Positions 1 to 19,280 of a stretch of DNA of 64,000 nt are shown here, piece after piece; the first letter of the stretch is position 1; every line of letters begins with the position of its first letter. The stretch lies in NCBI GenBank assembly GCA_910578245.1, contig CAJTPC010000003.1:5259-69258 (forward strand), written 5' to 3'. The translations under genes were made by a program, and so were the position numbers. This stretch comes from an uncultured Christensenella sp. Lineage in GTDB: Bacteria; Bacillota; Clostridia; Christensenellales; UBA3700. The notes under the pieces were generated by a model. That model had not been told where the DNA came from, did no database searches, and was given only the letters and a program-made list of their open reading frames with translations.

Positions 1-84
1 AGATTATTTGACAGAATTATTATACTCTTAATTAAATTGTGGTAAGTATAGAGAAAATATTTGAAAATAAATAGATTGTAGACA

Positions 85-112
85 TTGCAAATTGAGAAAA
101 CTGTGCTATAGT
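85..112 (+). promoter_or_regulatory. candidate sigma-A promoter (TTGCAA - 16 nt - TGcTATAGT)
   Basis: TTGCAA at 85-90, a 16-nt spacer, and an extended -10 TGCTATAGT ending at 112. A GGAG RBS at 141-144 precedes the ATG at 153. Confidence 0.45.
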
Positions 113-152
113 AAATATACGAGTATGTTAAGTAAAAATTGGAGATTAAATA

Positions 153-539
153 ATGTTAGACTACAATAATCAATATGATATGAGCACAATAAATTCAGCT
201 GAAAGATTAGGAGAGGTAATTAAAGCTCAAGAAACACAAAGAAAGCGTGAGGCTCAAAAAGGAGCTGCGATTTTGCAGACGGCGGTTGAGAGTAAGAAAC
301 AGAACCAATTACTTTCTGCACAAATCGATGAATTAAAAGAGCAAAAGAAACTATTGTCAGAACAAGTTGTTGAATTGAAAGAACAAAACCAAGTAATTAA
401 AGAAACGTGCGAGAATGCAAAAGCAGAGGCTGTGGAGAACCAAAAGCAAGCAAAGCAAAATAAAGTTTTTGGTTGGGTATCATTTGCAGTTGGTACAGTT
501 ATAGGCATTATTGGTATTGTGTTGGGAATTGTTTTTTAA
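153..539 (+). CDS. tail-anchored coiled-coil protein (hypothetical)
   Basis: ATG with a GGAG RBS. Heptad-like Q/E/K-rich region (LSAQIDELKEQKKLLSEQVVELKEQNQ) and one C-terminal hydrophobic helix (FGWVSFAVGTVIGIIGIVLGIVF). I recognise no family. Confidence 0.55.
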   Translation: MLDYNNQYDMSTINSAERLGEVIKAQETQRKREAQKGAAILQTAVESKKQNQLLSAQIDELKEQKKLLSEQVVELKEQNQVIKETCENAKAEAVENQKQAKQNKVFGWVSFAVGTVIGIIGIVLGIVF

Positions 540-557
540 TTGGAAAGAGGTTGCGAA

Positions 558-1946
558 ATGAATGACAAATTTAAAAAGGGTTTAATAGATATTTTGTATG
601 GTTTATGGGATTTCTTAATTGTCATGTCTTTAATATCAATAATTACTTTTGCTTTTTGGAAAATCGATATTGTAACAAGACAGGTATTATGGTATTTGTC
701 ATGTGCTATTTGGATAAGTAGTTGTTTCAATAAGAAACATATGAATGATAGATTAACAATAATAGATAAATATAATAATTTATTGAATGCTACTTTTGTT
801 ATTGTCATACTTATTGTATTTGGTGGGGTTTTTCTTATAAAGACTTATGATACTAGCTTTAATTGGTATTGGTATGCTTTTGTGATAGTGGCAGTATTTA
901 CGTTGTGTGGAACTGGTTGTTGTGCAATTATAGGTTGGGAGAGGTCAGATAAGAGTGCGAATATAAAGAAAAGGATAATTACATTATCAGCAAAAATGTT
1001 ATCATATCTCTGGCTAGCGGATTTATTCTATATGTCATTTATTGTCGGCAGTTTGCTTTTAAGATTTATTTTTGGGATAATAGTTCTTGCTATAATATTA
1101 TCTAGTCTAGCGGTTGCATTTTTAAGTAATACTCAATCATCTAAATGGCTATTATTAATAGATTTTTTGTATGGAATTGGATTAACTATTTATTTAATAT
1201 ATATAATCCCAGAGAAATACACTAATTTACAAACAATAGTGTTTACCATTGTTGCGGCTGTTTATGGAGGATTGCTTACACTCGTTGGCGTAGCATGGAC
1301 AATTAGAAAAGGTAATAAAGATAGAAATGAAGATTTAGAGCGTAGGGATAAAGAACGAAGAGAAGATTTAGAACGCATTGATAAAGAGCGAAGAGAAGAT
1401 TTAGAGCGTAGGGATAAAGAGCGAAGAGAAGATTTAGAACGCATTGATAAAGAACGAAGAGAAGATTTAGAACGCATTGATAAAGAGAGGGCTGAAGATG
1501 AAAGAAAAAAATACAAACCCTTTTTCATTACAAGTGTGAAAAAACGCGAGGGCAATTACAGCACTATTGATTATCAATTTATAGAAAATGAAAGTTTTTC
1601 ATTTTCTATAAATGAAAAATGCACTACACAACACTTAATTAGGCAATGGGTGATAATTAATACAAACCTAAATATGTTTGCTGTCTATGGGTTTAAGTTT
1701 AATAATAGTATAGTAAAAATTCATCCTTTTATGTTTGTGGACCTGAATGAAATTATAAATGTTAAAATACCCCCATTCTTTTTTATAGAAGAAATAAATA
1801 GAATTTCGATATTGGTTATAGATATGTTAGATAATGTCTATGAAGTTATTCTTGGATTTGATTCGGAAAAACAAGGTTCAGAAAACATATTGATAATAAA
1901 AGGAATTACTAGACCTAAATTAACAGATATAAATGTGGAACTTTAA
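558..1946 (+). CDS. polytopic membrane protein (about 8 TM) with a charged ER/K repeat stalk and an unknown C-terminal domain
   Basis: The ORF track starts at TTG 540. The in-frame ATG at 558, preceded by GGAAAGAGG, is the more likely start. About eight hydrophobic segments are followed by five 11-aa EDLER(R/I)DKERR repeats and a 150-aa tail. Confidence 0.65.
   Translation: MNDKFKKGLIDILYGLWDFLIVMSLISIITFAFWKIDIVTRQVLWYLSCAIWISSCFNKKHMNDRLTIIDKYNNLLNATFVIVILIVFGGVFLIKTYDTSFNWYWYAFVIVAVFTLCGTGCCAIIGWERSDKSANIKKRIITLSAKMLSYLWLADLFYMSFIVGSLLLRFIFGIIVLAIILSSLAVAFLSNTQSSKWLLLIDFLYGIGLTIYLIYIIPEKYTNLQTIVFTIVAAVYGGLLTLVGVAWTIRKGNKDRNEDLERRDKERREDLERIDKERREDLERRDKERREDLERIDKERREDLERIDKERAEDERKKYKPFFITSVKKREGNYSTIDYQFIENESFSFSINEKCTTQHLIRQWVIINTNLNMFAVYGFKFNNSIVKIHPFMFVDLNEIINVKIPPFFFIEEINRISILVIDMLDNVYEVILGFDSEKQGSENILIIKGITRPKLTDINVEL
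1329..1493 (+). repeat. in-frame 33-nt tandem repeat x5 (EDLERRDKERR / EDLERIDKERR)
   Basis: Five consecutive 33-nt units beginning gaagatttaga(g/a)cg at 1329, 1362, 1395, 1428 and 1461. They alternate between an Arg-Arg and an Arg-Ile variant. Confidence 0.9.
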
Positions 1947-2071
1947 TATTTGTATACCAATACAATCCTTATATAAATATGTATTAAAAGTGCTTGACTT
2001 CAGGGGATTATTCCCGTATCATGGCAGCACCAAAAGTAAGTATAGTTTCTTTTGGTACGGAGATGAAGAGT

Positions 2072-2770
2072 ATGTCTATATATGGATATGTTAGAGTAAG
2101 TACAAGAAAGCAAAAGTTAGACAGGCAGATAACAAATATAACGTCAGCCTATCCATCGGCAATAATCAAAAGTGAATTTTATACAGGCACAACTACAATT
2201 CGCCCTGAATGGGAAAAGTTGAAGAAGATGCTTAGGAGTGGGGACACTATAGTTTTCGACAGTGTGAGCCGTGTGAGTAGAAATGCAGATGATGGCTTTG
2301 CTAACTATCAAGAATTATTTAGTAGAGATATAAATTTAGTTTTCCTTAAAGAGCCACATATAAATACGGAAGTCTACAAGAAGTCAGTAGCAAAGGCATT
2401 GGATATTGAAGTCAACACAGGCAACGATGCTATTGACGAATACTTTGCAGGTAATATGGAACTTGTCAATAAGCTATTGATGAAACTTGCTCAACAACAA
2501 ATCAAGGTAGCATTTGAGCAGTCGGAGAAGGAAGTAACAGACTTACATCAAAGAATATCAGAGGGAATGAGAGAAGGCAGAGTAAAGGGAAGTCGAATAG
2601 GATTAGTGAAAGGTACTAGCCTAACTACAAAGAAGTCAATAGACTGTAAGAAGATAATACAAACTCACTCTAAAAGTTTTGGTGGCAGTCTTTCTGACGA
2701 TGAAGTAATTAAACTATGTGGATGCAGTAGAAATAGCTATTATAAGTATAAAAGAGAACTTATGAACTAA
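2072..2770 (+). CDS. small serine recombinase (resolvase/invertase family) with C-terminal HTH
   Basis: The N-terminus MSIYGYVRVSTRKQKLDRQ matches the catalytic-serine motif (Y-x-R-V-S-T-x-x-Q). FDSVSRVSRN matches the D-R-x-S-R region. The C-terminus LSDDEVIKLCGCSRNSYYKYKREL is HTH-like. The ORF track starts at TTG 1994; ATG 2072 has a GGAG 9 nt upstream. Confidence 0.85.
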   Translation: MSIYGYVRVSTRKQKLDRQITNITSAYPSAIIKSEFYTGTTTIRPEWEKLKKMLRSGDTIVFDSVSRVSRNADDGFANYQELFSRDINLVFLKEPHINTEVYKKSVAKALDIEVNTGNDAIDEYFAGNMELVNKLLMKLAQQQIKVAFEQSEKEVTDLHQRISEGMREGRVKGSRIGLVKGTSLTTKKSIDCKKIIQTHSKSFGGSLSDDEVIKLCGCSRNSYYKYKRELMN

Positions 2771-2877
2771 AAAAGTGACGAAACCTTTAACAATCACATA
2801 CTTTGATAAAATAGAACGGCTAAACTGTATAGAAGAAATTGGTGTGGTATAAAATAGGTATCAGTTTAGGGGATATT

Positions 2878-3297
2878 ATGAAATTAGAGAAGGAAATCAA
2901 TTTAGACAAAATAGCAGGAAAGAATTTCGGTAAGGAAAATACATTAGAAAACTTTAAGGAAGCACAAAGACTTTTCAAGGAACTATTGTTGAGTGAGCCA
3001 CCGTACAAAGAAGTTGAGTTTACAATAAGTCAAATATTAGGCTTAGGTATGAGTGATTTAACAATACCACAATATTGCAGTCATTGTAAGCAAGAGCGAA
3101 ACTTTAAGTCCAAAGAAACATTTGATGCCAAAGATTACTTGCAAGAAGTTATCAATCTATTAGTAAGGGAAGATAAGGAAGTATATGAGAAGGGCGTTGC
3201 TTGGGCATGTAACATTGTAGTCAAGTGTGAACATTGCGGAGAACAGCATATAATTCCAATACTAATAAAGGATTCCAAGATACAAAGGCTTGGATAA
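2878..3297 (+). CDS. small zinc-ribbon protein (hypothetical)
   Basis: ATG 2878 follows AGGGGA. Two CxxC pairs are present (CSHCKQ ... CEHCGEQH). No recognised family. Confidence 0.5.
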   Translation: MKLEKEINLDKIAGKNFGKENTLENFKEAQRLFKELLLSEPPYKEVEFTISQILGLGMSDLTIPQYCSHCKQERNFKSKETFDAKDYLQEVINLLVREDKEVYEKGVAWACNIVVKCEHCGEQHIIPILIKDSKIQRLG

Positions 3298-3358
3298 TCC
3301 TAATTTCTTTACAAAAAGTATAGACATAAATACAACACCATCAAATCTAATGCAATTA

Positions 3359-3387
3359 TTGACCTTTAAGTTAAAAAATGCTACAAT
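3359..3387 (+). promoter_or_regulatory. candidate sigma-A promoter (TTGACC - 17 nt - TGcTACAAT)
   Basis: TTGACC at 3359-3364, a 17-nt spacer, an extended -10 TG at 3379-3380, and TACAAT at 3382-3387. Confidence 0.55.
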
Positions 3388-3445
3388 ATGCTATAAGGAG
3401 ATATTGGAAATAAAGTCAGTCAACACGCAAGGTTGAGTATAATGT

Positions 3446-4066
3446 GTGGCTCAAACAATACAAAGAAGAACGTGCAATATTATTGATGGATGGTTTGAAA
3501 TTGCGATGAAAGAAATTGTTTTGAAATTGATAGATAAAGGATTAGTGGAAGCTCTGATAGGTTTATTTGGAGTTTTCGTTGGATGGTTTTTATCTTGGAT
3601 TACTCAAAAGGGACGATTGCGTTTATTTGCTGATAATGGAATTAACGCAAAGTTTACAAATGTAAACGAAATTTTAGTTAATAGAAGAGAAGATGTCAAA
3701 TGTTTTTCTTATAATATAAAATTAGATGTTTATAATGGTAGTAATTCTACAAAAATAATGAGGGACATTCAAATCTCTTTTGAAAATAAAGGCAAAATTA
3801 TAAAAACGAGCATTCCTTATGATAACGCTAAAACTATTCGGGAGGGCGTTCCTATACATACAAATGTAGGGGTTGTAAATATACCACCCAAAAGTATTAT
3901 CCATCTTGATTTGCGTAACTATTTTTGGAATAGTGAGATTGACTTTATTTGGGATGTAACAGTTGTCAAATTGTCATATAAAAATCATAAAGGGTGTTGT
4001 AAGTCCGTAACAATAGAAAAAGTTGATTTTAAAAATTTTGACTTTAGTTCAATGCAGCAGGAATGA
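3446..4066 (+). CDS. single-pass membrane protein (hypothetical)
   Basis: One N-terminal TM segment (ALIGLFGVFVGWFLSWI) followed by a beta-rich soluble region. The start is uncertain: GTG 3446 or ATG 3506. Confidence 0.5.
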   Translation: MAQTIQRRTCNIIDGWFEIAMKEIVLKLIDKGLVEALIGLFGVFVGWFLSWITQKGRLRLFADNGINAKFTNVNEILVNRREDVKCFSYNIKLDVYNGSNSTKIMRDIQISFENKGKIIKTSIPYDNAKTIREGVPIHTNVGVVNIPPKSIIHLDLRNYFWNSEIDFIWDVTVVKLSYKNHKGCCKSVTIEKVDFKNFDFSSMQQE

Positions 4067-4377
4067 AAATGTAAATACTGAAATGTTGCTGAAAATTTGC
4101 ACAGCTATTTTTGACTTGCCTTTATAGGGGGTATTCCGATTATAGAACTCATCATTTAAAGGAAAGTCTTTATTATTATACAATATATATGGAATTTAAA
4201 TAATACCTATTCTTTAGTTTACTTTTCCTTTAGATTATACTATAATATATCTACAAGGTTTTCTATTAATATGTCTTTCGACAGGATTGATTTACGCAAG
4301 CTAACCAAAAACCCCTTGCATAAAAACAAGCTAAATGTAGGAAGACAGACAAAGACGAAAAACGATAACAAATATAG

Positions 4378-4407
4378 AGAGACCTTGTGAAAACGAGGTC
4401 TTTTTTC
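4378..4407 (+). terminator. rho-independent terminator-like hairpin inside module A
   Basis: AGACCTTG / CGAGGTCT stem with one G-U pair, loop tgaaaa, followed by TTTTTT. Confidence 0.5.
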
Positions 4408-4492
4408 TATGTTTATAGGCTTGGAACAAGCCAATTATGTTAAAGAGTATCCTCAATAAATTAAGTGAATAAGGTGTCAAAAAAAATTGTAT

Positions 4493-4557
4493 GCTTGCGT
4501 AAAGCAATCTTGTCGCAAGACATCGGTTGTCTTTCGACAAGATTGATTTACGCAAGC
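4493..4557. repeat. 65-nt near-perfect palindrome at the junction of the two modules
   Basis: The left arm (4493-4521) and right arm (4529-4557) are reverse complements with 2 mismatches in 29. The loop is atcggtt (4522-4528). Isolated half-arms lie at 4273-4301 and 4745-4773. Confidence 0.85.
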
Positions 4558-4640
4558 CCCCCAAAAATAACTTGCACTAAATTAAGCGAGATGTAGGAAG
4601 ACAGACAAAGACAAAAAACGATAAAACAAAGAAATTTAAG

Positions 4641-4669
4641 AGAGACCTTGTGAAAACGAGGTCTTTTTT
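4641..4669 (+). terminator. rho-independent terminator-like hairpin inside module B
   Basis: Same sequence as in module A: agagaccttgtgaaaacgaggtctttttt. Confidence 0.5.
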
Positions 4670-4794
4670 CCTATTTATGAGCCTAAATGAGTGAAGAGTA
4701 TCCTCAATAATTAAGTTACATCAAGTGTCAAAGAAAAGTGTCAGGCTTGCGTAAAGCAATCTTGTCGCAAGACATCGGTTCAGCATTCAATTCA

Positions 4795-4828
4795 AACCGC
4801 CGTACATTTGGTACGGCGGTTTTCTTTT
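4795..4828 (+). terminator. strong rho-independent terminator
   Basis: Perfect 11-bp stem AACCGCCGTAC / GTACGGCGGTT, loop atttg, followed by TTTTCTTTT. Confidence 0.8.
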
Positions 4829-4927
4829 AGCATACTTATATAAAGTCCAAAAATTTACGCACATTGGAAGATTAAGAAATTTTGTAAAATATACCAAATA
4901 TTTGTAATACTAAATAATAAATATATA

Positions 4928-4994: not shown

Positions 4995-6938
4995 ATGACG
5001 AATTTCGTTAAGAATTTGGAAGTTGCTATAGACCTTGGCAGTGATACAGTCAAGGTTGCGTATGCTTTTGAATCTAAAAATAGCGTAGAATACGGCAAAC
5101 TTGCCCCTTGCGATATTACGGGAAGTGTGATAGTTCCCGCCATTGCTTACTACGATGAGGAAACTTTGTCTTGGCTATTCGGAGAAGAGGTGTATAAAAA
5201 CGTCGATAGGTCTTTCGTGACCGTAGTCAAGATAAAGTCGTTGTTGTCACTACTTCTCATTCGTCGTAATAAGAGAGTGACGGCAAGCAACAAACAGTAT
5301 TATTTCGATAAAAATTTATTCCCCAAGTTCTATTTCCCCAACAGGAAAAAACTTGCCGAAGACTTTGCTAAGGCTGAGGACTTGGACATGACTTTTAAGG
5401 CCAACAAGACTCCGCAAGAAGTGTGTGAAGAGTTTTTTGGATATTTGATTGATAATACCGTAATGCCAGCAATTCAGAGGTTGCAAAAAGAGAGGGGGAT
5501 TCACTTTGAAAATATCAATTATTCGCTGGTGTATCCCACCAAGGCGGGCAAGGAATACGTTGAAGAGCTGGAGCGTCTGGCAACTCGCGCATGCGGGAAA
5601 GATATGAAAAAAGTTTTGTCTTCTACGAAAGCGTTGGGGCTATTTGCATACCACAGACAAGTGCTAAAGAAAGGAGATGCGGTAGTAATTTTCGATATGG
5701 GCGAGGAGGATATATCCGTCGCAAAATTCACTCTTAATTCATCGGGAAGTATGATTATCGACGGCGTGGACGGACACAATGAGCCGATGGAGATAGGCGG
5801 AAACGACTTTGACTATGCTTTAAGAGATTACGTGGAGGGCGTTATATCAGACAGAGAGACGGTAGGCGCTCCGCCTTCGGGCGAGGACGGATATATTGCC
5901 GAAAAGGGATTGCATTCAACGCAGTTTTTGACGCTCAACGAGATAAAAAAGACTAAGACGGCGCTTTCGCTAGACGATGAAATATTCGAACTTGCTTTTA
6001 AGGACGGCGTGACTATGTCCATACAGCGCGACGTTGTAGTTCAAACAGGCGTTACGAGAGATGATTTCCTTAAGTGCGTGGGTATAAAGAATAGCGATGG
6101 CGTAGCTAAAAAGATTGCCGATTATATAATCAGCGAGATGAAGAGAACTCTTAATAATGATGTGGATAAAGTGATGCTTTCAGGCGGGGTAAGCGAGACG
6201 TACGGACTTATAGAATATATAGACGGGCAGTTGAAAAACGCCGGCTTGCGAGTAGAGATTATCACATTTGACGACTATCAGAGCGAGGACGATAACTTTA
6301 CGATACTTTCTAACGAGGACTCGACTTTTGCTCCCGCGGTAGGCGGAGCTATCGTAGCGCTTATGGGATACGAACTCAAGATGGCGGTCGCGTTATCGTA
6401 CGGCACATGGTTGTACAACAAAAATATAAACAAGAAAATACTTGACGTTTTCTTGCTAAGAGGCAGAGTTATTCCTCCCAAGGGCGGGGAGTATTCCTGC
6501 TCGACTTACGTCAACTATAAGGACGCTTGGTCGGATAGAGTAAGGAACGAGGAGATTTTCTCTACTACGATTGGCAAAAAAGGCGACGTTATTGGCGACC
6601 CCGACAGCGAGATAAGAAGACAGAGAGAAAAAGATATTGACCTCAAGGTCGTGTCTGGCGGAGCAAATAAGGGCGAGATACTCTTTTATTGCAAGGATAA
6701 AGGGTCTTTGAAACGCGTGGAAATTCAAGGACTTCTCTATTTCAAAGAGGGCGTGAAGATAGACCCCGACGGCAGAGCTACGCCATTTATACACAATGAC
6801 GTGATGAAGAACGGCAGATATAATATGATACTTGTAAGACCTGTAGGGTCGTCGAGTTATCCTAAAAAGACCTATTATGAGAATATAGTATTAAAATTCA
6901 GCGGAGTCGACGACTTTGAAGTCGAGAGTTCCGATTGA
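4995..6938 (+). CDS. Hsp70/DnaK-like ATPase (actin-fold NBD plus beta-sandwich-like domain; no helical lid)
   Basis: AIDLGSDTVKVAY parallels the DnaK phosphate-1 motif GIDLGTTNS. VVIFDMGEEDISVA parallels FDLGGGTFDVS. EIGGNDFDYAL parallels LGGEDFD. VMLSGGVSETYGL parallels LVGGSTRIP. ALSYGTWL...RGRVIPPKGGEYS parallels PLSLGIET...RNTTIPTKKSQ of the substrate-binding domain. Confidence 0.8.
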   Translation: MTNFVKNLEVAIDLGSDTVKVAYAFESKNSVEYGKLAPCDITGSVIVPAIAYYDEETLSWLFGEEVYKNVDRSFVTVVKIKSLLSLLLIRRNKRVTASNKQYYFDKNLFPKFYFPNRKKLAEDFAKAEDLDMTFKANKTPQEVCEEFFGYLIDNTVMPAIQRLQKERGIHFENINYSLVYPTKAGKEYVEELERLATRACGKDMKKVLSSTKALGLFAYHRQVLKKGDAVVIFDMGEEDISVAKFTLNSSGSMIIDGVDGHNEPMEIGGNDFDYALRDYVEGVISDRETVGAPPSGEDGYIAEKGLHSTQFLTLNEIKKTKTALSLDDEIFELAFKDGVTMSIQRDVVVQTGVTRDDFLKCVGIKNSDGVAKKIADYIISEMKRTLNNDVDKVMLSGGVSETYGLIEYIDGQLKNAGLRVEIITFDDYQSEDDNFTILSNEDSTFAPAVGGAIVALMGYELKMAVALSYGTWLYNKNINKKILDVFLLRGRVIPPKGGEYSCSTYVNYKDAWSDRVRNEEIFSTTIGKKGDVIGDPDSEIRRQREKDIDLKVVSGGANKGEILFYCKDKGSLKRVEIQGLLYFKEGVKIDPDGRATPFIHNDVMKNGRYNMILVRPVGSSSYPKKTYYENIVLKFSGVDDFEVESSD

Positions 6939-6952
6939 GAGCGGAGGACAGA

Positions 6953-9766
6953 ATGGGAAAGAAATTTACGTTAAGATGTGGCGACGGCGCATTTGATAAG
7001 GATGTTCAACGCTCCAAGATAGCGGGAGAAGTCCGCCCATTTGACGCAAAAATGGCGACTTTGACTAAGTGCGCTGAAGAGCTTGACAGATACGACGATT
7101 TTGCCGAGCTTAAAATCAAGCCAGACGTTTATAAAAATCAAGGCGGTAAGTACGGTATTATTCCACTTGCGGATAAAGGCGGTCAGGCTATTCTCAAAGG
7201 ACAGCAGACGGCAGTTACGATTTTTCTTAAAGAATTGAGAGGTTTCGGACTTTTGGCGGACGTAGTAGGTAGCGGTAAGACTTTTGAAGCGTGCGCTATA
7301 CTAAGCGAACTTGCAGTCAGAGGCAAGATGAAGTCGCTCCTTTTAGTCGTACCGTCGCAGGTATACGACAGCTGGATAAACGTACTCGAAAATCTTTTCG
7401 GACTTGGAGAAGGCGTGCTTTTGCAAGTTGAAGATCCGCACTTTGATGAATGCGAGGAAGTTCTTGACGGATACGTAAGACGTCCTAAAAGACCTGTTAT
7501 CGTCAAGACGGAAGACTTTGTAAAGTGGAATGAAAATCAAATAAAAGACGTACTTTTCGACGTGGTAGTCGTAGACGAGGCGCATCACCTTTGCACGGAA
7601 GAGGGCGAATACGCTAAGGCAATGAAATTGTTATCAATGCTTATGATGACAAAGAAGAGAGCCAATTCGACCTATTGCGTATTGCTGTCGGCTACGCCGC
7701 ACTCGGGCAACCTCGACAAGATGTTCAGGCTTTGGTACTTCGTGCGTTGTAAGGGCGGTAATCCCGACGACTTCGACGTCAAGGACGATAAGGACCGTAC
7801 TCTCGATTACAAAAAGGAAAAGGAGTACTATAGACTCAACGTTTGCCGTGGCGCAAATACCGTGTCGGAATTTATTACGGCTGTCAAGCAATTTGAAATT
7901 GATAATAATTACACAGCTCCTTTCAATGCCTTCTTGAGAAAAAAGAAAGAACTCGACAAGTGGGATAACTATACTCAAGGCGAAAAGCAAGTCTTGAGAG
8001 AAGAGTTTTTGAATTTGGACGGCAATGAGAATATTCGTCAGGAAGTACTTAAGAGAGTTGCCGGCGCATATCACAACGGCGTATTGAGAACTATAATGAT
8101 ACGCCAGCCAAACGAGCTGAGCAAGTCGAGATTCGTATACAACAACTATTTCTATCCCATAGCGCCAACAGGTAGAATACTAACTACGCAAGGCGTGGAC
8201 GGCAGGACTATCAAAGTCGATTTGAAGGCGCTCAATACCAATAAGGCTGTAGAAGTAGACGGAGCGTTTTATTCGCTTAAGAGCTATGCCGAAGAGTTCT
8301 CAAAGAATGACAACGCTCAAGAGGCGTACGCAGAATTGGTAGTGTCCAAAATACTCGGTAAAATCGGGTCATTCAACGATCCGAGCATGTTTGATAAGAA
8401 AGACAGCCAAAAGTATTATTGGGAGCAGTTTGAGCGTAAAATAGCGTCGGAGAGCAACGATAGTTTTTGGCTTATGCCGGCGACTAACGACAGCTTTGAT
8501 TACAAACTCAAGCAGGCAAAGAAGATTCTTGACGAACACGCAGGCGAGAGAGCGTTGATATTTTTCGATTATGATTTGCCAAAGACTAGCAAGGGCTACC
8601 GTCAATGGAATAAGGTTATAGACGCGCTCCAAGCCGAGGAAAAGTTTAAGAACAGAATTATCGTAGGAACGGCGGAGAATAAGGACAAGAACGTCAAGAA
8701 GTTCTTGCAAAAAGAAGACGCTATTTTGATAGTCACCGATTCGGCGTTTACCGAGGGCGTCAATTTGCAGGACAGCAGAATTATAATCAATTTCCAAGTT
8801 ACTCCCGATCCGCTTGCTATGGACCAGAGAATCGGACGTGTGTTCCGCCTCGGACAGTCGAGCGACGTCAAGATATATTCCTTTGCGGACATGAACAAAC
8901 TTGAGGGATTTGCGCTTGCGTACTTCAATAGTATAGGACTTCTCACCAGCAACAGCGGTGACGCTACGATTATTGCGGGAAGTAACAACGAGAGAATGGT
9001 AGCATTGCGATGCCCCGCTTGCGGAAAGGTTGCGCTGTACTCGAAGGGCGATTATGAGATTGCAAAGAAAAAAGGCGAAACGTATTGTATCAACGAGCCG
9101 AAACTTTGTTGTCTTGACGACCCAAGAGGCACGCTAATGGAAGAAATCAACGTCTATGAATTCAAGTGTTCAAACTGTTCGACGACTCTCTCGCGTAGCG
9201 TCGGCGAGGGCGGATATAAATGTATATCTAAAAACAACGACGATAGAGGCACTATGTGCAATAGCGGAGCTTCGGGAGATAGGGAGTATTACTGCTCGAA
9301 GATATGCGCTATGCGACACTGCTCTAGGTTTAAGGGCGAGTTCAAAGGCAAGTGTAAGGTACTCAAAGCGTATGAGGAGAATCCCAACGTAGCTACATCG
9401 GACTTGCAGATTATATGCGCAAAGTGTTCCAACAAAGCCGAGTGTCCGCAAAGATGCAGATACGGAGTGGGCAGAGCAAGTATCGAGGCTTGCGCTTCGT
9501 GTAGGAACGCCGAGTGTCATCCTAAGCCGTATACCATATCGTTTGACGATAAGTGGTCGGCTAAATGTCCGATATGCGCGCAGAGGGGCGAAAAGGGAGT
9601 TTTGTATCCCGTAGTAGCTAGGACATTCGCGGCGTATATGAGAGCGTCTTGGGACTTTAAGCACGATGGCGGAGAATCTTTCTGTAACAACTTAATGAAA
9701 GAAGCAAGTAAAGTAGCGGATATAAAAGCTATATTGTCTATGGACAGTATGTCGGAGGGGAGGTAA
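6953..9766 (+). CDS. SNF2-family helicase with a C-terminal Cys-rich (multi zinc-ribbon) domain of about 250 aa
   Basis: Motif I is LLADVVGSGKTFEA (7268-7282 encodes GSGKT). Motif II is VVVDEAHHL (DEAHH at 7574-7588). Motif III is LLSATPHSGN. Motifs V/VI are TEGVNLQ and DQRIGRVFRLGQ. The tail from about 8990 carries at least 9 CxxC-type clusters. ATG 6953 follows a GGAGGA RBS; the ORF track begins at TTG 6935. Confidence 0.85.
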   Translation: MGKKFTLRCGDGAFDKDVQRSKIAGEVRPFDAKMATLTKCAEELDRYDDFAELKIKPDVYKNQGGKYGIIPLADKGGQAILKGQQTAVTIFLKELRGFGLLADVVGSGKTFEACAILSELAVRGKMKSLLLVVPSQVYDSWINVLENLFGLGEGVLLQVEDPHFDECEEVLDGYVRRPKRPVIVKTEDFVKWNENQIKDVLFDVVVVDEAHHLCTEEGEYAKAMKLLSMLMMTKKRANSTYCVLLSATPHSGNLDKMFRLWYFVRCKGGNPDDFDVKDDKDRTLDYKKEKEYYRLNVCRGANTVSEFITAVKQFEIDNNYTAPFNAFLRKKKELDKWDNYTQGEKQVLREEFLNLDGNENIRQEVLKRVAGAYHNGVLRTIMIRQPNELSKSRFVYNNYFYPIAPTGRILTTQGVDGRTIKVDLKALNTNKAVEVDGAFYSLKSYAEEFSKNDNAQEAYAELVVSKILGKIGSFNDPSMFDKKDSQKYYWEQFERKIASESNDSFWLMPATNDSFDYKLKQAKKILDEHAGERALIFFDYDLPKTSKGYRQWNKVIDALQAEEKFKNRIIVGTAENKDKNVKKFLQKEDAILIVTDSAFTEGVNLQDSRIIINFQVTPDPLAMDQRIGRVFRLGQSSDVKIYSFADMNKLEGFALAYFNSIGLLTSNSGDATIIAGSNNERMVALRCPACGKVALYSKGDYEIAKKKGETYCINEPKLCCLDDPRGTLMEEINVYEFKCSNCSTTLSRSVGEGGYKCISKNNDDRGTMCNSGASGDREYYCSKICAMRHCSRFKGEFKGKCKVLKAYEENPNVATSDLQIICAKCSNKAECPQRCRYGVGRASIEACASCRNAECHPKPYTISFDDKWSAKCPICAQRGEKGVLYPVVARTFAAYMRASWDFKHDGGESFCNNLMKEASKVADIKAILSMDSMSEGR

Positions 9767-9767
9767 T

Positions 9768-11417
9768 ATGGCAAGAATACATATAGGAAACGAATATTGC
9801 AAGACCTTTGACAGCATAGTCAAACTATACGAAGAAGGTTGCGTTGAGGACGGCGTTATTACAAAAATCGACGGCGATAGAATTGTCACGCCATCGCATG
9901 AATTCGTCCTATCAAGAGGAAGGTCAAGCAAGACTGGCGCGGAAAGAACGGCTTTGATAAACGAAAACGGCGCGACTTGGTTTGGCGCGTTCAGAGGCGA
10001 AAAATTCAAGAACAACACCGCCGAATGGCTAATGTTCGTAGAAACGATAAAGGAGCATTTCCATCGCAATTACTCCGTACTCGAATACCGTCCGAAGATC
10101 AAAGAAATATCCAAGGAATACGTCAATTCTCAAATAAAGCTGATTGACAACGCCTTGAAGTGTTTTTATGACGACTACGCTTTTGAGATAAAGAGAGCGG
10201 ACGATGAGGAAGGATTAGAGGACGTGTACGGCGCTTCGTTCAGAATGGAAATTACCGACGGTACAGGCGAAGCAGTACCGGTGCTCGGCAAGATATATTT
10301 CCGCAAGAAAGGAACTTCGTTTATCCCATTTAGCAGTAGTGAAGCAGAATTGATAGACGCGCATATCACCAAGAATTTCGACAGTGAAGAAGAAGGAGAG
10401 AATTTCTTGCAAAACAGCGCTCAATTGACGGATACTGTGGTCAACGAACTCGATAAACTCGTCAATTCAAGTAAGAACGACTTATCGTCAAATCTAGTGT
10501 TTACCGACCCTGCCGATAAAGAAGCAGTAGAACTTATGGTAGAAAAAGGACCTAACGATAACGTTGAATTGACTTGTTTAAGCCTTTCGCTACTCAATAT
10601 CTTCCACTTCAAGTGGCGAAGCGACATATACAACATTTTGCTAGAAGACAAGATTGTTCTTAAAGCAAGCGTGGGACTTGGCGGAAGATTGACTGTTTCG
10701 TGCAATTCATGCGCAGAAAAAACTACGCTTATAGAAGCCGGTAAAATCACTTTGAATTTCAAAGGAGCGCGCAGGAGCGTTACGATAGACCCAAAACTTG
10801 AGGATCTCAATTTGACGGCCTCGGCTATCGAAACGGCTAAAGAAAATCTTTTCTCAAAGCATTTGAAGAGAATAAGTTGCAATGAGAACGCGCGTTTGGC
10901 AGGTATATGCACCAAATATGTTTGCAGTGGCGATACCGTTACAATATCTTCTAAATCAGGATCAGTCTGCAAGTGCAAGAACTGTCCGCATCCGGAAGTA
11001 ATTTTTAAGTGCGACGACGGAGCGGTGAGATATACCAAAGACTTGGTATTTGTCAGAGACGCTATGACGCTTATGCCTAAGGAGAATACGGTAGAGTGTA
11101 GTTGTTGCGGTAGAACGTTTACTAAAGACAGCGATAAAGCTCAGTATACTTGCGATTTTTGTAAAATTGCGGACAGAGGTCTTGACGCTCTAGACGACAC
11201 CGAGTATCAAAGAGGCAAGACTTTGTATGGTAAGTACAGAGGTATGTTGCCGTTGACTACTAGGATGAAGAGCGCAAAACTGAAAAAATACTGTCAGGAA
11301 GATGAAGACTGCATTATGTTTGTTATAGATAAAGAGGTGTATATCTTCAATAAGGACGAGCAAGGCGAAGGCGGATTCCTAAAAGCGCCAATGCGCAAAA
11401 TCGGAGGTGAAGTATGA
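9768..11417 (+). CDS. hypothetical protein with a Cys-rich (zinc-ribbon-like) C-terminal half
   Basis: The ATG lies 1 nt after the SNF2 stop, with GGGGAGG upstream. Cysteine clusters include SCNSCAEK, CKCKNCPHPEVIFKCDD, ECSCCGRTF and YTCDFCK. No recognised catalytic motif. Confidence 0.7.
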   Translation: MARIHIGNEYCKTFDSIVKLYEEGCVEDGVITKIDGDRIVTPSHEFVLSRGRSSKTGAERTALINENGATWFGAFRGEKFKNNTAEWLMFVETIKEHFHRNYSVLEYRPKIKEISKEYVNSQIKLIDNALKCFYDDYAFEIKRADDEEGLEDVYGASFRMEITDGTGEAVPVLGKIYFRKKGTSFIPFSSSEAELIDAHITKNFDSEEEGENFLQNSAQLTDTVVNELDKLVNSSKNDLSSNLVFTDPADKEAVELMVEKGPNDNVELTCLSLSLLNIFHFKWRSDIYNILLEDKIVLKASVGLGGRLTVSCNSCAEKTTLIEAGKITLNFKGARRSVTIDPKLEDLNLTASAIETAKENLFSKHLKRISCNENARLAGICTKYVCSGDTVTISSKSGSVCKCKNCPHPEVIFKCDDGAVRYTKDLVFVRDAMTLMPKENTVECSCCGRTFTKDSDKAQYTCDFCKIADRGLDALDDTEYQRGKTLYGKYRGMLPLTTRMKSAKLKKYCQEDEDCIMFVIDKEVYIFNKDEQGEGGFLKAPMRKIGGEV

Positions 11418-18134: not shown

Positions 18135-19280
18135 ATGGCAAACGACGAGCAGAAAAAAGAGGGCGTAGAAGAGCTTGAGAGTAAGCTCCGCGCCGTCACG
18201 GAAGATATTCGCAAGATACTGGGCGGTCGCAAGGACAAAAAAGACGTGGGCGAGGAAGATAAGAATACGTTGCGTTCAAAGTATTCTCAAGCCGCTCAAA
18301 TTGCGCGCACGCTTTCAAATAGATGTACCGATACCGACAAGATAGAGAAGTATTCTAAGTTTTATAAGCAACTCAGCGACGCGGCGGCTAGTTACGGCTC
18401 GGTACTAAAGAGCAAAGTTCCTAATACAACTTTGGACGACGTCAAAGGACTTGACGACGTCAAGGCTCTCGTCAAGAGTTTTATCTTCATGGCTCGCAAT
18501 CCCGAGATACTTAAGTATTATAAAATGGAAGGCGGATTGGGTATGCTTATGTACGGCGCGCCCGGTACCGGTAAAACTATGTTTGCCGAGGCAATAGCCA
18601 ACGCTATGAATCTACCTCTCTTTATAGTTACGCCAGCAGATATTTTCAAGTCATACGTAGGCGAGTCGGAGCAAGCCGTAAAGCAAATATTCGATGAGAT
18701 AGACACATGTCCGGACGGCGCAATACTTTTCGTCGATGAGTGCGAGTCTATCTTTAGCAGACGTACTCAAGATACCAAGGACTATAAGTCGGCGGTTACT
18801 ACTGAACTTTTGCAACGTATCAACGGCTTTGGCGTTGACGGTTCGAAGAGAATTATGATCGGCGCAACAAATAGACCAGACGTAATAGATCCGGCGTATT
18901 TAAGATATAAGAGATTTTCGCATATAGTTCACGTTACGCCTCCTGATTTTGAGGCAAAGAAAGCTATTATAGAAGGCAAACTTAAGGGGATAGAACTTGA
19001 CGATATATCGCTTGAAGAAGTCGTCAATATGACTAAGGAGTACACCAATGAGGTGGACGACAACGGCGAAGTGCGCACGGTTGCGTACTATTCCGCGGCG
19101 GATATATGCGGTATTATTGAAGAAACTTGTCGTTACGCATTAGAAGAGATAGAGGAGAGCGGCGGGAATAAGGCAATACCTTTGCGCCTTGATATGTTTG
19201 AGAGGGCGTTTAAGAAAATCCCGCCAAGCATAAGCGCAGGATTGCTCGAAGAATACGAGAACTTCCGCAATACTCATTGA
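18135..19280 (+). CDS. classical-clade AAA+ ATPase, Vps4/katanin/spastin-like, with an N-terminal three-helix (MIT-like) region
   Basis: Walker A is GAPGTGKT (18555-18578). Walker B is ILFVDECE (18726-18740 encodes LFVDE). SYVGESEQAVKQIF parallels SKWLGESEKLVK of Vps4. GATNRPDVIDPAYLRYKRF lacks the PGRFD motif of FtsH/Cdc48 and resembles the RRRFE-type meiotic clade. The first 90 aa or so form three predicted helices. Confidence 0.8.
   Translation: MANDEQKKEGVEELESKLRAVTEDIRKILGGRKDKKDVGEEDKNTLRSKYSQAAQIARTLSNRCTDTDKIEKYSKFYKQLSDAAASYGSVLKSKVPNTTLDDVKGLDDVKALVKSFIFMARNPEILKYYKMEGGLGMLMYGAPGTGKTMFAEAIANAMNLPLFIVTPADIFKSYVGESEQAVKQIFDEIDTCPDGAILFVDECESIFSRRTQDTKDYKSAVTTELLQRINGFGVDGSKRIMIGATNRPDVIDPAYLRYKRFSHIVHVTPPDFEAKKAIIEGKLKGIELDDISLEEVVNMTKEYTNEVDDNGEVRTVAYYSAADICGIIEETCRYALEEIEESGGNKAIPLRLDMFERAFKKIPPSISAGLLEEYENFRNTH

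Follow-up and report, generated by a model that had tools for sequence, protein, structure and literature searches.

The window analysed here, a 64,000-nucleotide stretch corresponding to C3:5259-69258 of genome G000 (1.55 Mb, 40% G+C, 64 contigs), contains an AT-rich region (1-4271) that harbours a small serine recombinase gene, followed by two tandem modules at 4272-4522 (module 1, + strand) and 4528-4774 (module 2, + strand). Both modules begin with TGT and end with ACA, are bounded by 30-nt inverted arms (TGTCTTTCGACAGG... and ...TTGTCGCAAGACA; 4272-4301 and 4493-4522 for module 1, 4528-4557 and 4745-4774 for module 2), contain an internal terminator and are directly followed by the pentanucleotide TCGGT (4523-4527 and 4775-4779). 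The modules are 80% identical to each other. A repeat search of the window recovers the direct repeats (251-263 bp spacing, 80-88% identity), the inverted arms of module 1 (4271-4301/4493-4523, 31 nt, 90%) and of module 2 (4528-4558/4744-4774, 31 nt, 94%), and a palindrome at the module 1/module 2 junction (4493-4522/4528-4557, 30 nt, 93%, 5-nt gap). A 29-nt arm pattern, allowing up to two mismatches, matches the window four times, compared to zero matches expected from 100 shuffles. The two tandem inverted-arm modules described in a first-pass annotation of this DNA, with a 29-nt arm at module starts and ends, are thus real; the exact units are the TGT...ACA segments given above, each trailed by its 5-bp TCGGT, rather than the slightly different limits initially assigned.

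Other features reported for the modules can be placed more precisely. The terminator-like hairpins on the + strand are called at 4376-4405 in module 1 and at 4638-4669 in module 2. Between the two copies there are indels of 9-10 nt, which are not multiples of three, and hence the modules look non-coding, as had been proposed. The minus-strand TTGACA, regarded as conserved, is present within the genus but reads GTGTCC in the relatives L064 and L035, and it is not called by the promoter scan. The recombinase gene (1994-2770, + strand, Resolvase N-terminal domain) is located 1.5 kb upstream of the modules, and the large operon starts 215 bp downstream of them, at 4995, both as originally noted. 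Two further elements had been overlooked: a sigma-70-type promoter, TTTACT-17-TATAAT, at 4218-4246 (+ strand; predicted start ~4253-4254) that reads into module 1, and a strong terminator called at 4794-4822 (whole feature 4794-4831, + strand). All DNA and RNA contigs assembled from public runs carry one extra A after position 4876, a homopolymer-length difference upstream of the operon.

Exactly one further copy of the module is present in G000, at C1:6105-6356, and it is identical to module 1 at 252/252 positions. This copy starts 10 nt past the stop codon of rpsR, the final gene of rpsF-ssb-rpsR, and its 5' flank reads ...GAGTAAGAAGT-TCGGT, bringing the occurrences of TCGGT at the G000 locus to three. 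On its 3' side lie TAGAT, three AAGAAGAATTT repeats and then an adjoining tns operon (C1:1331-5602) comprising a 115-aa ORF, TnsB, TnsC and TniQ. The 596-aa TnsB contains rve, Mu-transpos_C and HTH_TnsB domains (the last from precomputed annotation), the 405-aa TnsC an AAA_22/TniB domain, and the 424-aa TniQ matches PF06527 with an E value of 1.5e-17. The C1 operon is a Tn7-like transposition module.

The 115-aa ORF (C1:5592-5939) is highly conserved, occupies the tnsA position, overlaps the tnsB start and displays a TDFYC...RECVYK motif. No match to it was found in Pfam, NCBIfam or PDB sequences, a profile search against the PDB included, and its AlphaFold2 model is of low confidence (pLDDT 45). 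No recognisable TnsA was found in the element, the tnsA position being filled by this ORF only. In L072 and L034 an additional zinc-ribbon ORF follows the 115-aa ORF. Between the rpsR-proximal module and the 115-aa ORF (C1:6026-6079), two to three AAGAAGA(A/T)TTT direct repeats occur together with inverted copies, and equivalents are found in G006, L035, L061, L064, L066 and L071-L073. These repeats may be operators or extra transposase sites. The AAGAAGAATTT repeats were considered as end-binding sites common to both ends and rejected, being found on the tns side only. An array of same-orientation TnsB-binding repeats was not found in the ends, which display only the arms and one degenerate inverted copy of the arm (module positions 45-76).

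No physical connection between contigs C1 and C3 exists in the G000 assembly, and their relationship emerges in part from genomes that lack the insertion. The sister genome G020, which is the closest relative and has an rpsR 99% identical to that of G000, carries an empty site that reads ...GCTGAGTAA-GAAGT-TGGGT-TTTGCATTCAATTCAAACCGTCGTAC...GTACGGCGGTTTTC, or in short form GAGTAA-GAAGT-TGGGT-TTTGCATTCAATTCAAACCG...terminator. This empty site corresponds to the C1 left flank fused to the window right flank from 4775 onward (TCGGT-TCAGCATTCAATTCAAACCGCCGTAC...). A second empty site, with the identical TCGGT, is present in G018. Therefore, the DNA that separates the rpsR-proximal TCGGT on C1 from the TCGGT at 4775-4779 is inserted, and native chromosome runs from this distal copy of the target duplication onward. 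The same comparison identifies the hairpin 4794-4822 as the native terminator of the rpsF-ssb-rpsR operon, located ~30 nt after the rpsR stop in G020 and displaced from rpsR by the insertions in G000. Synteny in G015 and G006 agrees with the downstream operon being a stable chromosomal feature.

Homologous elements recovered in complete form have the same arrangement. In G006 the order is rpsR, module, TAGAG, tns genes, 18 kb of cargo including the resolvase, promoter, TAATA and a second module. An intact element on a metagenome contig (L064/L068), with a TnsB 78% identical to that of G000, has end modules that are identical at 237/237 positions and is flanked by a 5-bp target duplication, TTATG. 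A G006-like layout also surrounds a decayed element in L035, an uncultured Christensenella MAG, with TATAACAAC on either side. In G000, G006, L035 and L064, the outer arm of one end module is an inverted copy of that of the other. The ~55 nt that lead up to the distal module and contain the promoter are likewise shared by homology among G000, G006, L035, L068 and L043. Consideration of these complete elements indicates that the mobile unit spans outer arm to outer arm, and hence that positions 1-4271 of the window are its cargo side (the left-end side of the transposon interior). Given that the modules are TGT...ACA units with 30-nt inverted arms, the outer arms of both modules represent the transposon terminal inverted repeats.

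The connection between C1 and C3 is accepted because flanks, empty site and homologous complete elements agree. The resulting order in G000 is rpsR, TCGGT, module (C1), tns genes, cargo (window 1-4271), module 1, TCGGT, module 2, TCGGT, native rpsR terminator and chromosomal operon. From this comparison module 1 can be assigned as the far-end (left-end) module of a Tn7-like transposon, and the TCGGT at 4523-4527 as the target-site duplication whose partner is located 5' of the rpsR-proximal module on C1.

Both intact elements have identical direct repeats as their end modules (252/252 and 237/237), in contrast to the 91% and 78% identity seen in decayed ones. This identical-both-ends layout has been shown for the clade with at least 78% TnsB identity; the contigs that carry the elements L066/L069, L071/L074 and L061/L070 stop short of the left ends. 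In L071 and L066, which are more distantly related, the terminus on the outer left is unlike the inner ...ACA arm. The target duplications themselves are not uniform: the outer 5-bp flanks of the G006 element differ (GTTGG versus GGTAT), and the duplication flanking the L035 element is 9 bp (TATAACAAC on both sides) rather than 5. The L035 TnsB is reduced to 156 aa. The two end modules of this element (9307-9541 and 18207-18443) share only 78% identity and are mosaics; in its second half, the distal one is nearly identical to the L064 module. Such mosaic modules suggest recombination between different elements.

The insertion point is constant. TnsB relatives at 93, 78, 74 and 60% identity are all located directly 3' of rpsF-ssb-rpsR, and in 7/7 contexts (G000, G006 and L035 among them) the insertion lies 9-11 nt past the rpsR stop with the tns genes proximal. 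Among genomes of the same taxonomic family, TnsB was found only in G000 and G006, the two with full modules. Two other candidate explanations for a conserved non-coding unit at this position were rejected. A housekeeping ncRNA downstream of rpsR does not agree with the 57/61 relatives that have no module, with the existence of empty sites or with the co-occurrence with TnsB. A CRISPR-less guide or homing RNA matching the attachment site was dismissed on the grounds that the empty site contains no module sequence and that the distance from the rpsR coding end is fixed despite different flanks.

Taken as a whole, these data are best explained by the modules being the terminal repeat units of a Tn7-like transposon residing at rpsR, a model we consider very likely to be correct. 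The transposon comprises the small ORF, TnsB, TnsC, TniQ and a resolvase that co-evolves with TnsB; it inserts in one orientation, 9-11 nt past the rpsR stop and between rpsR and its terminator, with a 5-bp target duplication; and the intact element bears one ~240-250-bp module at each extremity, in direct orientation. This part of the window can be explained accordingly: the AT-rich recombinase cassette is cargo, the abrupt change in composition is the left end of the transposon, and the terminator preceding the operon is that of rpsR. The cargo within the window itself consists of orphan membrane and zinc-ribbon proteins. That of L061/L070, L066/L069, L071/L074 and L073 consists mostly of restriction-modification and defence-type genes, including GmrSD, EcoRI-type and C5 methylases, RES, Abi_C, Fic, a Cap4-like nuclease and SNF2/DEAD helicases.

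One alternative in the first-pass annotation was that the modules are invertible segments. In this reading, the serine recombinase would flip the DNA between each module's arms, so that a terminator or promoter changes its direction with respect to the operon downstream. Each segment is indeed flanked by 30-nt inverted repeats, and the recombinase is of the resolvase/invertase type with weak similarity to Mpi-type invertases. However, all 10 full modules, as well as 3 half modules, face the same way with respect to rpsR and tnsB across at least six genomes or contigs, and the arms coincide exactly with transposon termini flanked by target duplications. The native rpsR terminator at 4794-4822 furthermore separates the modules from the operon, so that flipping would not couple to operon expression. 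We also searched assembled contigs (Logan) from four independent mouse-gut/fermentation DNA metagenomes, where rare variants would fall below the contig level: the window arrangement was recovered in all four, with a unitig across the module 1/module 2 junction and a module 1 depth ~2x that of the flanks, corresponding to its two identical copies, and no inverted joints were found in these contigs. Local inversion is consequently scarcely tenable as an explanation.

The resolvase fits the transposon model in a different capacity. An orthologue is present in every related element, with identities of 93, 81 and 59% that track those of TnsB, and its distance and orientation relative to the modules vary. 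Because of this shared history and variable placement, which also speak against a recombinase dedicated to the modules, the resolvase is to be viewed as a tnsR-like core gene of the transposon, as in other Tn7-like transposons that bear a resolvase (PMC8649781), and not as a local invertase. The listed ORF begins at a TTG 26 codons upstream of a conserved Met (M27, position 2072) that is the probable start. The 125-nt stretch 1947-2071, probably intergenic, is a candidate res site.

While module 1 is one end of the resident transposon, module 2 appears to have a separate history. It is flanked on both sides by TCGGT and is 95% identical to the module of L061, an element whose TnsB is 93% identical to the resident TnsB. 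We infer that module 2 is what remains, as a solo copy, of a related element that occupied this site earlier. It could have arisen by recombination between the two direct-repeat modules of that earlier element, in a manner resembling solo LTR formation, or by transposition of a module alone, and either route would account for it. The current element would then have inserted anew at the rpsR-proximal TCGGT. Since distance from rpsR sets target choice, the rpsR-proximal element should be the newer of the two.

The second of these routes leads to the view, close to the MITE-like element suggested earlier, that the module is an autonomous miniature element on which the TnsB machinery acts in trans. 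Separate insertions would then have given rise to module 2, and perhaps to both flanking modules, and the large element would be a composite bounded by two MITEs. The unit is indeed non-coding with TGT...ACA inverted termini, and module 2 has its 5-bp TCGGT duplication on both sides; every module has a correctly oriented arm pair, and so could in principle transpose alone. Yet the inner junctions ACA/TAGAN and TAATA/TGT are kept in G000, G006, L035 and L064 and are not duplications, which argues that module and core have long been co-mobile. Dispersed copies are also missing: the three copies in the G000 genome are all at the rpsR attachment site, no module copies were found in plasmids and phages, and a scan of 241 million metagenome records yielded two true matches only, both at an rpsR-type locus. 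Recombination between two direct repeats, moreover, explains the solo module equally well. The MITE-like description therefore holds for the inverted termini, for the target duplication and for module 2 as a solo non-coding copy, but not for module 1, an integral end of the large Tn7-like transposon, and an independently mobile module appears possible but rather unlikely.

Relatives with partial modules illustrate a further fate of these insertions. In G015 and L042, just the first half of the module lies between rpsR and the next gene, and L043 retains the promoter and the first half. The half modules are located at 10579-10728 on the minus strand of L029 (G015 C11), at 1393-1542 in L042 and at 621-770 in L043. 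In these half-module relatives, arm, hairpin and terminator are found directly after rpsR and are followed by the native flank, and the native rpsR terminator is gone. They look like deletion scars, in which a terminator derived from a transposon relic now appears to serve rpsR.

The first half of the module has a well-defined architecture. It opens with a 76-nt hairpin beginning at base 1 of the element (4272-4347 in module 1), which is followed by an A-rich linker and a Rho-independent terminator (4376-4407 in module 1 and likewise in its identical rpsR-proximal twin, + strand). Every relative has a corresponding 68-76-nt hairpin at its first base, with TGT... paired to ...ACA, followed by an A-rich linker and a terminator, and this layout is kept in L066 and L071 despite unrelated sequence (z -4.9 to -7.8). 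In the terminator, two stem pairs are changed on both sides across relatives, i.e. in a compensatory manner. RNAalifold applied to a MAFFT alignment recovers the terminator alone, the two clades misaligning in the hairpin region, and no conserved fold was found in the second half of the module. The long hairpin is made up of the arm and its degenerate inverted copy and folds equally well on both strands; no strand asymmetry that would separate an RNA from a DNA function was found for it. This equal folding of both strands makes a DNA-level role, as paired transposase sites, as likely as an RNA-level one.

Metatranscriptome contigs show that rpsF-ssb-rpsR RNA extends into the module. In the deepest run (X37), the rpsR-operon RNA contig ends at 4407, the end of the U-run, at a depth of 75. 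In four other runs, the corresponding contigs end at 4439-4478, 30-70 nt past the terminator, and in one run the RNA contig continues into the tns genes. Termination is probably leaky, or else the contig ends are imprecise. A separate 152-nt RNA contig in run X25 covers 4254-4405 and begins at the predicted start of the distal promoter, equivalents of which are found at the same place in G006, L035, L068 and L043 (five elements with G000); the 4405 end of this contig is a de Bruijn graph branch point and hence uninformative. The RNA contigs carry no strand information, and contig depth is a poor measure of expression.

These observations can be accommodated by the Tn7-like transposon model. 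The element lands between a highly expressed essential operon and its terminator, and brings its own terminator at its extreme end. At the rpsR-proximal module, this terminator most likely stands in for the rpsR terminator that was displaced and keeps read-through into the transposition genes low, in partial agreement with the RNA contigs. Terminating rpsR transcripts is thus the most parsimonious role that can be assigned to the first half of the module, and is partly supported. At the distal module, the dedicated promoter and terminator might give rise to a ~150-nt RNA, or may insulate host DNA from outgoing transcription.

The first-pass annotation had also considered the modules to be structured sRNAs with paired 5' and 3' ends. 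This is mostly not supported in its original form, given that the terminator sits mid-module, but a ~150-nt RNA from the module first half, without paired ends, is plausible, as RNA contigs cover the arm, hairpin and terminator and module 1 has a promoter directed into it. A stronger version, compatible with the transposon model, would hold that the first half works as a small RNA or 3'-UTR element in its own right, for example controlling read-through into the transposase genes or acting on them in trans, and that it has been conserved for this RNA function rather than for the binding of transposase. The promoter conserved before the distal module in five elements is consistent with this, as are the X25 contig beginning at the predicted transcription start, the two-hairpin layout that persists in relatives without sequence similarity, and the abundance of the first half as the rpsR 3' UTR (depth 75 in X37). 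Against it, the two strands fold equally, as they would if the long hairpin were simply an inverted repeat of transposase sites that acts at the DNA level; the contigs are strandless and the 4405 end falls on a graph branch point; and no target was identified. A scan with Rfam 15 gave no match at the gathering score, and permissive thresholds brought up nothing but spurious miRNA-precursor matches to the palindrome, the best being a plant miRNA-precursor model (29.5 bits versus a gathering score of 83) that covers the palindrome only. We regard a riboregulatory role as unlikely to be what has conserved the first half.

The identity of the end modules in intact elements calls for an explanation of its own. 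Gene conversion between direct repeats is proposed as the dull answer, and a link to the resolvase or the transposition cycle as the interesting one. A more elaborate scenario would have the LTR-like identical modules result from a cycle that copies or recombines one module into both ends, for instance by TnsB placing a mini-module at rpsR and the resolvase then integrating or excising the core via the module copies. Alternatively or additionally, the hairpin-terminator RNA of both modules might be a transposon-encoded riboregulator, coupling the expression of transposase to read-through out of the host ribosomal-protein operon. This scenario is, in our estimation, improbable and is put forward as speculation. 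The end architecture raises the questions of how TnsB recognises the ends, how module identity is kept up and how the element insulates itself inside a ribosomal-protein operon. The rpsR-associated Tn7-like family, with its defence cargo, is widely distributed among gut Clostridia (Christensenellales-type) from mouse and elsewhere, and elements that insert with such precision and in a defined orientation are also of interest as insertion tools.

Tn7 and Tn7-like elements use TnsD/TniQ-directed insertion downstream of a conserved gene, as exemplified by attTn7 at glmS and by Tn6022 at comM. The element described here resembles them in its TnsB-TnsC-TniQ operon, its TGT...ACA termini and its 5-bp target duplication. 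Here, too, only one orientation of insertion is seen, the spacing from the stop codon of a conserved, essential gene is constant and the tns genes lie at the gene-proximal end; the cargo of the family is rich in restriction-modification and defence genes, and insertions and remnants pile up at the attachment site. It differs in that the attachment site is rpsR, the 3' end of which is an apparently undescribed site for a Tn7-like family: no paper naming both Tn7-like and rpsR was found in a literature search. Furthermore, Tn7 ends are defined by asymmetric arrays of same-orientation TnsB sites, whereas no such array was recognised in the ends seen here, which are identical ~250-bp direct repeats bounded by inverted terminal sequence, an LTR-like layout that is unusual for Tn7-like transposons; nor is there a recognisable TnsA. 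A second insertion is found here beside a solo module with near-identical arms, a situation that target immunity would be expected to discourage (PMC11014353, Tn6022). Tn5053/Tn402-type and other Tn7-like elements bearing a resolvase (tnsR) have been described, and replicative transposition has been predicted for them (Benler et al. 2021, PMC8649781).

The combination of TnsB/TniA, TnsC/TniB and TniQ with a small serine resolvase as a core gene, along with a 5-bp target duplication, is reminiscent of these resolvase-bearing transposons. Those elements hunt res sites, whereas the rpsR element targets the end of a chromosomal gene, contains the extra conserved 115-aa ORF in the tnsA position and varies in resolvase position and orientation, with no res site identified. 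Finally, the presence of identical direct repeats at the ends of the intact element, and of a lone repeat with its target duplication left at the site, such as recombination between the two repeats would be expected to leave, invites comparison with solo LTRs. This likeness is by analogy only, as the rpsR element is a DNA transposon with a Mu/Tn7-type DDE transposase and, unlike LTR retrotransposons, involves no reverse transcription.
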